Below, one piece after another: positions 18,863-28,498 of a stretch of DNA of 64,000 nucleotides. This DNA comes from an uncultured Verrucomicrobiota bacterium. Lineage in GTDB: Bacteria > Verrucomicrobiota > Verrucomicrobiia > JABWAM01. Positions within the stretch are counted from its first letter, which is position 1; every line of letters starts with the position of its first letter. The DNA is taken from assembly GCA_964653025.1 (NCBI GenBank), contig CAZZBZ010000001.1, positions 39,826-103,825 of the forward strand. The letters are read 5' to 3'. Made by a program: the position numbers and the translations under genes. Under the pieces are notes generated by a model. It did no database searches, had not been told where the DNA came from, and saw only the letters and a list, made by a program, of their open reading frames with translations.

Positions 18863-18896
18863 TTGCCGATTTCTGATTGCCGATTTCTGATTTCCA
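18863..18896. repeat. Tandem heptamer array, ATTKSC family (GATTTCT GATTGCC GATTTCT GATTTCC)
   Basis: Read directly in the iscX-galK divergent intergenic region. Confidence 0.8.
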
Positions 18897-18935
18897 CCCT
18901 CCTCCCCAAACGCCCGTTTTCCCTTTTTTCCTCCG

Positions 18936-18985
18936 CTTCCCGCTTCCAGCTTGTAGCTTCTGGCTTGTCGCCTCCTCTCCTCCTT
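18936..18985. repeat. Tandem heptamer array (GCTTCCC GCTTCCA GCTTGTA GCTTCTG GCTTGTC GCCTCCT), forming the pyrimidine-rich galK leader
   Basis: Read directly. 7-bp periodicity over about 6 units, immediately upstream of galK. Confidence 0.75.
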
Positions 18986-19028
18986 CCCATTTTTCATTGG
19001 CCGTTTTACATTTCCCCTCCACCCTCCC

Positions 19029-20138
19029 ATGCTCTCCTCCTTCGCTCCCGGACGTCTCGAGCTGATCGGCAACCACACCGACTATAACGAGGGCTTCGTT
19101 CTCGCCTTTGCCCTCAACCTCGGCATCGCGCTTGAGGGGGAAACCCGCGACGACGGCCGTATCCACGTCATCAACCCCGAGTTCGGCGAGACCACCTTCG
19201 ACCTCTCCCTGATCGAGAAGGATCCTGCCGCCCCTTGGGCCAACTACGTGAAGGGAGTTCTTCTCCAACTCCAGCAGGCCGGCGCCCCGCTCGGTGGTTT
19301 CGAAATGCGCCTCCAGTCGAACCTTCCCACCGGCGCGGGGATGAGTTCCAGCGCCGCCGTCGAGGTCGCCACCGCCCTCCTCGTCCAGAAGCTCTTCAAC
19401 TTCGAGATCGGGGACATGACGGACCCGTCCGTCCGCATGGGCCTCGCCCGCCTCTGCCGCGCCGCCGAGAACGACTTCGTGGGCGTGAAGTGCGGGATCC
19501 TCGACCAGGCGACCAGCCTCCTCGGAAAGAAAGACCACGCCGTCTTCCTCGATTGCCGCACCGAGGAAGCGGAGACGGTTCCCCTCCACCCCGACTACTG
19601 CTTCGTCGTCTGCCACACGGGTGCCACGCATTCCCTCCTCTCCTCCAAGTACAACGCACGGCGCACCGAGTGCCAGGACGCCGTGCGCGTGCTACGCTTC
19701 AAGGGTCTCGAACTCCAGACCCTTCGGGACGTTTCCGCGGAGACGCTCCAGAAACACGCCGGCGACTTCCGTCCCCAGGTCTTCCAGCGCGCGATGCACG
19801 TGGCAAGCGAGAACGGACGCGTCCTCGCCGCGCGCGAGGCAATGCAAGCCGGGGACATGCGTAAACTCGGGGCACTCCTGTGCGAATCCCACGAAAGCTC
19901 CCGCGACGCCTTCGAGAACAGCACCCAGTACCTGGACAAGCTTGTGGAGATCGCGCGCAGCCTTCCCTCATGCCTCGGGGCGCGCCTCACGGGCGGCGGT
20001 TTCGGGGGTGCCACGCTCAGCCTCGTTGCCCGCGCCGACGCCGAAGCCTTCGCCGCCGAGCTTGCCGATCTCTACCGCAAGGCGACCGCCAAGGAGCCCC
20101 GCACCTGGGTCGTCGAAGCCGGGGACGGCGCCCGCTGA
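19029..20138 (+). CDS. galK: Galactokinase
   Basis: N-terminal galactokinase signature APGRLELIGNHTDYNEGFVLAFAL. GHMP motif LPTGAGMSSSAAVEVATAL. 369 aa. Confidence 0.9.
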   Translation: MLSSFAPGRLELIGNHTDYNEGFVLAFALNLGIALEGETRDDGRIHVINPEFGETTFDLSLIEKDPAAPWANYVKGVLLQLQQAGAPLGGFEMRLQSNLPTGAGMSSSAAVEVATALLVQKLFNFEIGDMTDPSVRMGLARLCRAAENDFVGVKCGILDQATSLLGKKDHAVFLDCRTEEAETVPLHPDYCFVVCHTGATHSLLSSKYNARRTECQDAVRVLRFKGLELQTLRDVSAETLQKHAGDFRPQVFQRAMHVASENGRVLAAREAMQAGDMRKLGALLCESHESSRDAFENSTQYLDKLVEIARSLPSCLGARLTGGGFGGATLSLVARADAEAFAAELADLYRKATAKEPRTWVVEAGDGAR

Positions 20139-20148
20139 CCGTCCCGCC

Positions 20149-26835: not shown

Positions 26836-26895
26836 GTGAGCAGTGAGCGGTGAGCAGAGGAGCAAGAGTAAGAGTAGGAGCAGGAGCAGGAGGGA
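26836..26895. repeat. Tandem heptamer array, GTRAGCA family (GTGAGCA GTGAGCG GTGAGCA GAGGAGC AAGAGTA AGAGTAG GAGCAGG AGCAGGA), filling the yajC-secDF intergenic region
   Basis: Read directly. On the minus-strand mRNA it gives a CU-rich leader immediately before the secDF ATG. Confidence 0.75.
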
Positions 26896-27210
26896 TCAGG
26901 CCTTCCCGCCGGATTCCTCGGGGAGGACCTGCTGGATGGCGCTGCGGAGTATCTCGACGCGGGTGTTCTCGGCAATCTTGACGACGACCGACTTCTCCTT
27001 GAGTTGGGCGACCATCCCGTAGATGCCGCCGGCGACAAGGACGCGGTCGCCAACCTTGAGGGCTTCGAGCATCTTGCGTGCCTCCTTTTGCTGCTTCTGC
27101 TGGGGACGGATCAGGATCAGGTAGAAGACGACGAAGATGAGGATCATCGGTCCGAGGGCGCCGAGAAGGCTCTTGGTCGGATTTTCGCCGGGCTGCGCAG
27201 GGGCGCCCAT
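26896..27210 (-). CDS. yajC: Preprotein translocase subunit YajC
   Basis: MGAPAQPGENPTKSLLGALGPMILIFVVFYLILIRPQQKQQK aligns with E. coli YajC (..TGAPAQGSPMSLILMLVVFGLIFYFMILRPQQKRTK). The start at 27210 is preferred over the upstream ATG at 27300, which would translate through the heptamer array. Confidence 0.8.
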   Translation of the reverse strand: MGAPAQPGENPTKSLLGALGPMILIFVVFYLILIRPQQKQQKEARKMLEALKVGDRVLVAGGIYGMVAQLKEKSVVVKIAENTRVEILRSAIQQVLPEESGGKA

Positions 27211-27218
27211 GGCCAGCG

Positions 27219-27296
27219 GGAAGGCTGAAGGCTGAAGGCTGAAGGCTGAAGTCGGAAGGGCGGAGGCCTGAAGGATTGAAGGCAGGGAGGGAAGGT
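27219..27296. repeat. Tandem heptamer array (GAAGGCT x4, then degenerate GAAGTCG GAAGGGC GGAGGCC TGAAGGA TTGAAGG) in the yajC 5' leader
   Basis: Read directly. The minus-strand mRNA shows (AGCCUUC)n, a pyrimidine-rich leader. Confidence 0.8.
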
Positions 27297-27319
27297 TCAT
27301 GGGGAAAAAGGAGAGAGGG

Positions 27320-28498
27320 TCAGGTTGGTTGTTTTTCGGATTTCGGGTTTCGGATTTCGTGTTTCCGCCCCGTTGGGGCGGCGGGGGCCTTGTAGCGGGC
27401 CAGAAAGTCGCGGCGGAAAACGCCAAACTTCCCGGCGCGGATCGCTTCGCGGATCCCACGCATCAGGGCGATATAGAACTGTAAATTATGCCAAGTGACC
27501 AGCCGTAAGGCGAGGATTTCCTCGGCATTAAAAAGATGGCGGATGTAGGCGCGGGAAAATCCGCGGCAGGCGGGGCATGGGCAGCCTTCCTGGATCGGAC
27601 CTTCGTCCTCGCGGTAGCGGCCCGCGCTGACGTGGAGGTAGCCGTCCGGCGTGAAGGCCACCCCGTTGCGTGCGACCCGCGTGGGGAGCACGCAATCGAA
27701 CATGTCCACCCCGCGCGCCACCATCTCGACCAGTTGCGGGGGAGAGCCAAGCCCCATCGCGTAGCGGGGGCGGTCCGAGGGAAGGTGGGGAACGCTCGCC
27801 TCGATGGCGTGCATCATCTCCGTCTCGGGTTCCCCGACGCTCACCCCACCGATCGCGTAACCGTCGAAACCGATCTCGACCAACCGGCGCGCACACTCTC
27901 CGCGGAGGGCGGCGTGGCTTCCTCCCTGCACGATCCCGAAGAGAAGGTTGGGAGAACCCGGGGCAAAGCGGACTTTCCAGTCGCGACATTCGGCGGCCCA
28001 GCGGAGGGAGCGTTCCACAGCCTCGCGAGCGACCGTCTCCTCGCAGGGCCAGGGAGGACATTCATCGAGGACCATCGCAATATCGGAGCCAAGCTTGTGC
28101 TGGATTTCCATCGCTTCCCGGGGCCCGAGGAAGCAGTCAGAGCCATCGAGGTGGGAGCGGAAGGCCACGCCGTGTTCCTGGACCGTTCGGAGGGGGGCGA
28201 GGCTGAAGACCTGGAAGCCGCCGCTGTCGGTGAGGATCGGCCTCCGCCAGCCCATGAAGCGGTGAAGACCACCCATGCGGGCCACCACGTCGGCCCCGGG
28301 GCGAAGGCTGAGATGGTAGGTGTTGGAGAGGAGAACCGAGACCCCGATCTCCTCAAGTTCGGAAGGTGCCATCGTCTTGACGGTACCCTGCGTGCCGACC
28401 GGCATGAAAACGGGAGTCTCGATCTCGCCGTGCGCGGTGCGCAGGCGGCCGAGGCGGAACCCCTCGGGGCCGGCGGTAACCTCAAAGGAGGCGGACAT
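27320..28498 (-). CDS. tgt: Queuine tRNA-ribosyltransferase (tRNA-guanine transglycosylase)
   Basis: MSASFEVTAGPEGFRLGRLRTAHGEIETPVFMPVGTQGTVK ... Zn-site CxCxxC (CPCPAC) ... H. The last ~20 codons (AAPTGRKHEIRNPKSEKQPT) are encoded by a heptamer array (27337-27368). Confidence 0.9.
   Translation of the reverse strand: MSASFEVTAGPEGFRLGRLRTAHGEIETPVFMPVGTQGTVKTMAPSELEEIGVSVLLSNTYHLSLRPGADVVARMGGLHRFMGWRRPILTDSGGFQVFSLAPLRTVQEHGVAFRSHLDGSDCFLGPREAMEIQHKLGSDIAMVLDECPPWPCEETVAREAVERSLRWAAECRDWKVRFAPGSPNLLFGIVQGGSHAALRGECARRLVEIGFDGYAIGGVSVGEPETEMMHAIEASVPHLPSDRPRYAMGLGSPPQLVEMVARGVDMFDCVLPTRVARNGVAFTPDGYLHVSAGRYREDEGPIQEGCPCPACRGFSRAYIRHLFNAEEILALRLVTWHNLQFYIALMRGIREAIRAGKFGVFRRDFLARYKAPAAPTGRKHEIRNPKSEKQPT
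27337..27368. repeat. Tandem heptamer array (GGATTTC GGGTTTC GGATTTC GTGTTTC), overlapping the 3' tail codons of tgt
   Basis: Read directly. Confidence 0.75.

Follow-up and report, generated by a model that had tools for sequence, protein, structure and literature searches.

What are the short tandem arrays of 7-nucleotide (nt) units that lie between several housekeeping genes of an uncultured Verrucomicrobiota bacterium, and why do they lie where they do? We addressed this question in a 64-kb stretch of the genome (contig CAZZBZ010000001.1; hereafter the window), the part of the genome analysed here, which has a G+C content of 64% and encodes proteins that match uncultured Verrucomicrobiae. 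The arrays supply most of the spacer DNA around galK-uvrD-larA and around tgt-yajC-secDF-response regulator. Our preferred answer, which we hold with moderate confidence, is that they are heptanucleotide simple-sequence repeats in two configurations. Between uvrD and larA, two arrays in inverted orientation would be the paired arms of a gene-less insertion that resembles the intervening sequences of rRNA, while single arrays would serve as structure-free leaders.

Period-7 arrays in the window

The arrays were located by reading positions 18600-27600, with Tandem Repeats Finder (TRF) and with a separate period scan of our own. TRF and inspection together gave 10 period-7 arrays of 3-9 copies in the window, nine of them within 18.86-27.37 kb; most are degenerate (76-92% matches in TRF). 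Run under strict settings within the window, our own scan returned eight period-7 arrays where 0.25 +/- 0.43 were expected from 20 dinucleotide-preserving shuffles, which bears out the periodicity noticed in a preliminary description of this DNA. Periods 4-13 (except 7) and 15 gave zero to two arrays each, and period 14, which corresponds to two units, gave six. The arrays of the main cluster, and the core of the element that two of them enclose, are:

18862-18894, plus strand: GATTTCT/GATTGCC array, 4.7 copies, with a 14-nt super-period (TRF)
18933-18968, plus strand: pyrimidine-rich GCTTCNN array, about 5 copies, galK 5' region (TRF, own scan)
22175-22209, plus strand: GATTTCY/GATTGCC array, 5 copies, left arm of the uvrD-larA element (TRF)
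22210-22390, plus strand: core of the element, 181 nt, without an open reading frame (ORF)
22391-22425, plus strand: reverse complement of the GATT family, about 5 units, right arm of the element
24373-24410, minus strand: GTRAGCA array (sense CTGCTNA), about 5 copies (TRF, own scan)
24516-24542, minus strand: RATTGGC array (sense AATTGCC/AATCGCC), about 4 copies (TRF, own scan)
26836-26857, minus strand: GTGAGCA heptamers (sense CTGCTCA/CCGCTCA) (TRF, own scan)
26858-26892, minus strand: AGGAGC hexamer array (sense CTCCTG) (TRF)
27220-27283, minus strand: GAAGGCT array (sense AGCCTTC), about 9 copies, 4 of them perfect (TRF, own scan)
27334-27365, minus strand: GATTTCG array (sense CGAAATC), about 4.5 copies (TRF)

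Reading and TRF confirmed tandem repeats of about 7 nt at all nine sites named in the preliminary description, and most of its coordinates stand. Its second array, drawn to 18985, ends at 18968 and continues as sequence that is merely CT-rich and aperiodic; its site at 26836-26895 is a 7-mer array as far as 26857, and the remainder (26858-26892) is the AGGAGC hexamer array. The three recurrent unit families that it had recognized, found in both orientations and adjoining gene ends, constitute a genuine repeat class. It had also described the arrays as scattered through intergenic DNA. All of them do lie in spacers or at the very ends of ORFs, ends that appear dispensable, but of about 24 intergenic gaps that measure 30 nt or more just four hold arrays. 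Those four are consecutive, and the arrays are clustered rather than scattered. In relatives, 0-2 arrays were counted per 22 kb.

The genes concerned were mapped by codon usage and checked against genes called on the contigs of relatives:

18564-18767, minus strand: iscX-like gene
19029-20138, plus strand: galK
20149-22167, plus strand: uvrD
22422-23684, plus strand: larA
23681-24364, minus strand: gene for an OmpR-type response regulator
24557-26827, minus strand: secDF
26896-27300, minus strand: yajC
27320-28531, minus strand: tgt

The array at 18862-18894 sits in the divergent spacer between the iscX-like gene and galK. That at 24373-24410 stops 8 nt upstream of the response-regulator start (24364), and the quasi-palindromic (CAATTG) array at 24516-24542 begins 14 nt past the secDF stop codon. 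Nearly all of the yajC-secDF spacer consists of repeats, hexamers first and then heptamers that stop 8 nt before the secDF ATG. The tgt frame crosses 27334-27365, and this array encodes the final residues of Tgt (...KHEIRNPKSEKQPT*), as had been read before. The array at 27220-27283 lies in the 5' end of yajC and reads ...SAFSLQPSAFSLP... if the start is the upstream ATG at 27300. Because this in-frame ATG and its CCCC context are kept in four relatives, the YajC N-terminus is probably encoded in part by the array. The units GATTGCC, AATTGGC, CTGCTCA and AGCCTTC contain no stop codon, and the Tgt and YajC frames therefore read through their arrays; although GATTTCT contains TGA, we rejected a universal all-frame stop module as a general rule.

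The tenth array (945-970, minus strand; GGAAGCG, sense CGCTTCC/TGCTTCC, about 3.7 copies; TRF, own scan and translation) falls within the leader peptide of a prepilin-like gene (228-986, minus strand). As a separate observation, the GC skew of the window tracks gene orientation rather than a replication axis: whichever strand carries the genes, their coding strand is rich in C, so that the skew is negative over the plus-strand genes (14-24 kb) and positive over the minus-strand genes (24-52 kb).

The uvrD-larA element and heptamer-flanked cassettes

The segment of about 250 bp that separates the stop codon of uvrD from the start of larA is bounded by inverted GATTnnn/nnnAATC arrays. Its left arm, (GATTTCC)(GATTTCT)2(GATTGCC)2, begins 7 nt after the uvrD stop, and its right arm, (GCAATC)(GCCAATC)(AGAAATT)2(GGCAATG), overlaps the larA ATG (22422-22424). 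Within the core between them are a hairpin and a GTCACCCCGA...CGAGGGATCT motif. When 22160-22440 was folded as RNA, the minimum free energy (MFE) was -93.4 kcal/mol (z = -4.2; 0 of 200 shuffles were equally stable) and the arms were paired. The predicted terminal stem is about 35 bp long, the first 60 nt forming 35 pairs with the last 60 nt, and the arm duplex was predicted at -45.8 kcal/mol compared to -18.0 kcal/mol for shuffled arms.

Four relatives, found through LarA, carry the spacer in different states. In L229 and L230 (80% identical LarA) it is only 21 nt long and reads TAA AGCGCCAACCCCTCCTCCTCC ATG. In L228 (84%) five left and four right units surround a 140-nt core, and in L227 (92%) there are two left and three right units, the left arm being three units shorter than in the window; the array indels between L227 and the window are exactly 21 and 7 nt. 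With two loci empty, L227, L228 and the window filled, and indels of 21 and 7 nt, these alignments indicate that the element is present or absent between lineages and that its arms change by whole units.

This architecture recalls the 23S rRNA intervening sequence of Coxiella burnetii, in which RNase III cuts a terminal stem of 28 bp and 2-3 GACAGAT heptamers precede the S23p (PF05635) ORF, their number varying between strains (PMC4990558). Excision by RNase III is likewise known for intervening sequences of Salmonella and Leptospira (PMC4990558). The two share an inverted-repeat stem of about 28-35 bp and 5' heptamers of variable number, and 23S intervening sequences as a group also resemble the window element in being present or absent between lineages and in having versions with no ORF or a decaying one. 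A stem of at least 20 bp, inverted heptamer arms and presence/absence were thus all found at uvrD-larA. Unlike the Coxiella sequence, the window element lies between protein-coding genes and not in an rRNA helix, has no S23p ORF, and has arms that are heptamer arrays throughout; and while excision by RNase III has been shown for Coxiella, the window element is known from its sequence. It may belong, as a member without a gene, to a family of insertions that resemble rRNA intervening sequences. Transcribed inside the operon, its terminal stem would be a candidate substrate for a double-strand RNase such as RNase III; alternatively, the stem might at least sequester the larA start.

Comparable arrangements occur in other genomes. 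When one genome from each species was scanned for (GATTKCY)x3, at least 120 contigs from Acidobacteriota, Planctomycetota, Verrucomicrobiota, Bacteroidota, Chloroflexota and other phyla were obtained, amounting to 870 kb of heptamer-selected loci; the repeat class is therefore not specific to one lineage, as had been supposed at first. These loci contained 293 period-7 arrays compared to 4-29 for other periods, with 265 at period 14 (two units), and 686 kb of unselected SecDF loci contained 19 compared to 1-6 for the other periods not divisible by three. Among separated adjacent arrays in the heptamer-selected loci (gaps >10 nt), 30 pairs were inverted and 9 direct. The inverted GATTnnn...nnnAATC-type layout was seen in L021, L032, L058, L213, L219 and L220, among others.

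Three out of four array pairs with gaps >200 nt enclose a small gene or gene fragment. Two intact enclosed genes match Pfam PF05635 (E = 1.7e-16 in L058, and 2.2e-14), and the L058 gene scored E = 1e-23 against TIGR02436 (four helix bundle protein) in an NCBIfam scan. A profile made from the enclosed genes matched 11 copies, all in heptamer-selected loci and none in control loci, and every one of the 11 adjoins arrays.

As an unselected test, we searched plasmids with one four-helix-bundle protein. The 29 records obtained were mostly cyanobacterial, with others from Chloroflexota, Bacteroidota, Spirochaetota and Bacillota, and 14 regions were examined. By an automated criterion, period-7 arrays lay within 120 nt on both sides of 11 of the 14 genes and on at least one side of 12, and no arrays of other periods from 5 to 11 flanked these genes. 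Seven of the flanking pairs were inverted and four direct or complex, with units that depended on the lineage (GATTTTA/TAAAATC, GTAATTC/GAATTAC, GATGAAG/CTTCATC, CAGTGAG/TCACTGG). As background, 50 kb around two of the plasmid genes held 3-4 arrays, two of which were those flanking the gene. In at least 12 of 15 elements tested, the arms are paired with each other in the global MFE fold. Four-helix-bundle genes are thus associated with heptamer arrays, and they sit between co-directional operon genes for defence, restriction-modification, CRISPR adaptation and transport.

Several individual loci may be recorded here. In eight plasmid loci (L213, L215, L216, L217, L218, L221, L224 and L226) the four-helix-bundle gene is wedged in a defence system, for example between DUF1156 and Swt1-HEPN genes, DISARM drmD and MmeI, helicase and N6-methylase, or hsdS and hsdR, or beside cas1/cas2; in L223 it lies between genes of an RND pump. 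L087 (1-1216) carries two tandem, nearly identical four-helix-bundle cassettes with 4 and 12 units of a CAAATCG array, so that array length is unstable between recent duplicates. In L100 (2283-2450, minus strand) a (CAATCAG)n array supplies the coding sequence for the N-terminus of a LeuD-like protein (MAGKKKSVISNQQSAISNPKSAI...), and in L021 (3760-3800) the four-helix-bundle ORF enters its right-hand array before a stop codon.

The Coxiella intervening sequence is the sole precedent that we found for the heptamer-flanked four-helix-bundle layout. We found no published general link between four-helix-bundle genes and heptamer arrays, which is weak evidence as subscription journals lay mostly outside the search. 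It is possible, and we offer it only as a tentative proposal, that inverted heptamer arrays are the terminal stems of a widespread, undescribed intergenic cassette family that resembles rRNA intervening sequences. Its cargo would be either a TIGR02436/PF05635 gene or a short hairpin, and solo or paired arrays, such as cyanobacterial STRRs and those of the window, would be arms, remnants or landing sites.

A known RNA family was considered and rejected: Rfam gave no match at the gathering threshold in the whole window, nor any at E up to 5 in the uvrD-larA spacer, and L113 gave only sub-threshold matches to generic hairpins. A hairpin motif, GTCAYYCYGA...GARGRATCT, was seen at 22290-22370 of the window and in L113 (3634-3755), L130 (31-56), L040 (6991-7023) and L001 (11250-11330). 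Its copies lie partly in the cores of array-bounded elements that have no gene and partly in unrelated contigs of other phyla; it has no Rfam family of its own and may be a separate, widespread intergenic palindrome.

Leaders, and turnover of the arrays

The second configuration concerns single pyrimidine-rich arrays. A Shine-Dalgarno-like motif precedes only 6 of the 44 window genes, and a strong C-run, usually CCC, stands directly before the ATG (for example at the starts 19029, 24364, 26827 and 27300); the genome does not use Shine-Dalgarno sequences. Some leaders hold an anti-Shine-Dalgarno-like string, CACCTCCT in the case of secDF. Compared to coding windows (-17.2 +/- 5.5 kcal/mol) and to the mean of all leaders (-12.9 kcal/mol), the three least-structured 60-nt initiation regions of the 44 are those of yajC (0.0), galK (-1.8) and secDF (-2.5 kcal/mol). 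All three leaders lie in spacers that hold arrays, and those of galK and secDF take in the array itself. On the sense strand, G is scarce in the arrays that directly precede starts, and the stretch from the array at 18933-18968 to the galK ATG (19029) is both G-poor and predicted to be unpaired. These folding predictions suggest that single pyrimidine-rich arrays are tolerated or favoured for structure-free initiation regions, and they may be kept because they yield such regions.

A scan for promoter and intrinsic-terminator consensus sequences at the arrays gave no more sites than shuffles did. One weak terminator-like hairpin was noted at 24548-24565 (minus strand), where GCTCGCTAACGCTCGAGC and then ATTTTCAATT run across the secDF stop into the AATTGCC array.

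Three near-identical assemblies were available: L001, a contig of a metagenome-assembled genome from NCBI (99.25% identical over 11.2 kb), and L002 and L003, both from Logan (99.9%). As far as these contigs extend, the arrays from 24373 to 27365 are base-for-base the same in L001 and in one or both of L002 and L003. They are therefore not artefacts of assembly or low complexity, an explanation that would have undone the preliminary description. Its suggestion of comparing copy number between strains gave no difference, as no array carries an indel across the three.

The sequence does change next to one array. From the first ~30 nt of larA outward (window 22405-22451, L001 11100-11582), L001, 99% identical elsewhere, departs sharply from the window, and upstream of larA it has a different sequence with another hairpin motif and a short degenerate AATTGGC-like array. 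This marks a recombination or rearrangement boundary at the array-bearing larA junction. The sole other indel between the two falls at 31563-31586, in the spacer between genes 30506-31561 and 31589-32056. Of an 18-nt stretch there, 15 nt are lost and 3 substituted, and 7 other bases are inserted slightly farther along; this stretch is not a heptamer array.

More distant relatives, graded by SecDF identity (L126, 96%; L128, 87%; L124, 86%; L127, 73%), differ from site to site. At the tgt end, the number of units of 27334-27365 is kept with substitutions in L126, the array is degenerate in L128, and (GAAATTA)x3 stands in its place in L127. The AGCCTTC array of yajC (27220-27283) is missing from L126 and degenerate in L128, and the yajC-secDF spacer of L126 is 12 nt, or two hexamers, shorter than that of the window. 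Just upstream of secDF other pyrimidine-rich heptamers are found, of the GCTTTTC type in L124 and as (ATTCTTC)x4 in L127, whose 22 kb hold only two period-7 arrays, at this site and at the tgt end. The array at 24516-24542 is conserved in L126 and L128 and absent in L124, and that at 24373-24410 is identical in L126. In the spacer between secDF and the response-regulator gene, both arrays of the window, with the flanks on their gene sides, are conserved in L126, whereas the core of about 105 nt between them cannot be aligned. The spacer between the iscX-like gene and galK lacks the 18862-18894 array in both L228 and L229.

The arrays thus gain and lose whole units over evolution, as slipped-strand mispairing would produce, and are stable between near-identical strains; turnover is slow and unit-wise rather than a rapid switching. 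The use of different pyrimidine-rich heptamers before secDF in separate lineages fits slippage supplying an unstructured leader that is tolerated or favoured. An association of arrays with the secDF upstream region conserved across Verrucomicrobia was considered and rejected, as it extends only to ~73% SecDF identity and is seen neither at 63-66% nor in 80 distant SecDF loci.

Known heptamer repeats and competing explanations

Heptanucleotide repeats have been named STRR in cyanobacteria since 1990. We know of no accepted mechanism or function for such repeats in bacteria. The preliminary description knew of no account of arrays like these; heptanucleotide repeats are in fact already known from Calothrix/Nostoc, Xanthomonas, Beggiatoaceae and Geobacter (GGGACCG and MTYCTGA in the last). 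According to Mrazek 2007, as cited in PMC4679880 and PMC4692102, they are the most abundant class of long simple-sequence repeat (LSSR) in many bacteria. The window arrays belong to this LSSR/STRR class, having at least three tandem 7-nt copies, an excess of one period, positions in spacers and at ORF ends, and three recurrent families. Members of the class are likewise 7-nt units, typically in 3-10 copies, with an excess of the period, mostly intergenic and with several unit families per genome; they occur in free-living bacteria with GC-rich or large genomes, and no function has been demonstrated for them. A search of the accessible literature found no report from Verrucomicrobiota, and searching by unit sequence returned only primer lists. 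The window differs from the published, genome-wide picture in that its arrays are clustered in a few consecutive spacers, and the published description includes neither inverted-pair elements nor a link to four-helix-bundle genes.

Two further kinds of repeat can be compared. GGGAATC in Xanthomonas and GGGGAYT in Nostoc form intergenic arrays near start and stop codons, some of them convergent inverted pairs able to form stem-loops, and the length of the Xanthomonas arrays varies between species (PMC4692102). Their units are G-rich and quadruplex-forming (PMC4692102), whereas those of the window are GATT-type or pyrimidine-rich and without G-tracts. The TAACTGA repeats of marine Beggiatoaceae, cyanobacteria and Bacteroidetes resemble the window arrays in having 2-6 copies that mostly end a few nt from a start codon, in sometimes overlapping ORF ends and in a proposed translational role where Shine-Dalgarno use is weak (PMC4679880). 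On the other hand, they consist of one dominant unit in one orientation with stops in all frames, while the window has several units, both orientations and inverted pairs.

A number of observations weigh against our reading of the two configurations and against the wider cassette family. A clean inverted pair occurs in only one of the ten arrays' contexts, and the GATT-type arrays at 18862, 24516 and 27334 are solo. The short arms of L227 form a duplex no better than that of shuffled arms. With regard to a possible miniature inverted-repeat transposable element with many copies, neither the 181-nt core nor the other spacer cores have a second copy in the window or the loci compared, and no target-site duplication was seen at the element junctions. 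Mobility would be read from one empty site, which could equally reflect deletion. A search of the window ORFs and of six-frame spacer translations at maximum sensitivity revealed no PF05635/TIGR02436 gene or remnant, and the case for membership in the cassette family is accordingly one of architecture and unit family. Low structure in the leaders follows automatically from their pyrimidine-rich composition and is no proof of selection, and relatives with 63-66% SecDF identity have no arrays at these sites.

One possibility is that the arrays are a neutral by-product of replication slippage with a polymerase-determined 7-nt bias, tolerated where sequence is unconstrained and without identity as elements or function; the proposal of polymerase contacts comes from Mrazek 2007 (as cited in PMC4679880 and PMC4692102). 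This would account for several unrelated units sharing only their period, for adjacent units being the most similar and for 14-nt super-periods, for arrays spilling into dispensable protein ends (the Tgt C-terminus, the YajC N-terminus and the prepilin-like leader) and for their gain, loss and decay among relatives. It leaves unexplained the recurrence of the same unit families, the threefold excess of inverted over direct separated pairs, the arrays that bracket one gene family in five phyla, the retention of gene-proximal arrays in the window and L126 around an unalignable core, and the occupancy of four consecutive gaps out of about 24. We regard it as unlikely. Another possibility, which we consider quite unlikely, is that the heptamers serve as repeated binding sites for a protein with a 7-nt register on single-stranded RNA or DNA. 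Such a protein would regulate downstream translation or mRNA stability in a way that does not depend on an inserted element; candidate readers would be cold-shock-domain proteins, ribosomal protein S1 or a four-helix-bundle pentamer. Consistent with this, arrays lie a few nt from start codons, as do the TAACTGA repeats of Beggiatoaceae for which S1, Csp and CsrA were proposed, and CspB binds as one protein per heptamer (PMC4679880). The absence of Shine-Dalgarno use and the structure-free leaders also fit, reporter data from Nostoc, whose heptamer repeats lie near start codons, hint at an effect on expression (bioRxiv 10.1101/2022.06.06.494920), and the typical 4-5 units would suit a pentameric four-helix-bundle protein such as the Xanthomonas S23p homopentamer (cited in PMC4990558). 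However, unit sequences differ so widely within one genome and between lineages that a single sequence-specific binder is unlikely, the GATT-type arrays are found both along and against the direction of transcription, and the window encodes no candidate binder.

Phase variation, which the preliminary description had raised together with slippage, holds that slippage changes copy number and so switches or tunes adjacent genes. The precedent is Haemophilus influenzae, where 7-bp tandem repeats upstream of hmw1 and hmw2 change copy number by slippage and drive graded phase variation, with an RNase III-targeted 5' UTR structure involved as a further likeness (PMC12721329, PMC8262952). In the window, the arrays at 22391-22425, 24373-24410 and 26836-26857 adjoin or overlap start codons, and more distant relatives do differ by whole units, so that the slippage half of the idea holds over evolution. 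The hmw tracts, however, are long and perfect and vary within patients in front of adhesin genes of a host-adapted pathogen (PMC12721329, PMC8262952). Those of the window are short (3-5 units), degenerate and imperfect, which suppresses slippage, and they adjoin housekeeping genes (galK, uvrD, larA, secDF, yajC, tgt) of an environmental, non-host-associated lineage. Copy number is the same in three assemblies from different samples at 99.2-99.9% identity, and arrays that overlap coding ends stay in frame only through multi-unit or compound changes. Phase variation is thus highly improbable, and the arrays are presumably not switches. Paired arms of an intervening-sequence-like insertion together with single arrays as structure-free leaders remain the explanation that we prefer.

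Taken alone, the window provides a verrucomicrobial example of a known repeat class, which is a modest addition. Two leads go further. Pyrimidine-rich arrays may give structure-free leaders in a genome without Shine-Dalgarno use, and inverted array pairs may bound insertable spacer elements, the same arms enclosing the very common and unexplained TIGR02436/PF05635 genes, a family related to Avd of diversity-generating retroelements (PF05635 proteins resemble Avd; PMC10053308) and to the ORFs of 23S intervening sequences. If this second lead holds genome-wide, it would join the heptamer excess, the four-helix-bundle genes and rRNA intervening sequences, and annotation would be affected, as gene callers extend Tgt and YajC through the arrays. 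If the cassette family is real, it would supply a concrete cause for the long-noted heptanucleotide excess in bacteria and a starting point for learning what the four-helix-bundle proteins do, for example as pentamers that read about five units, or through excision of cassettes from operon transcripts by RNase III.

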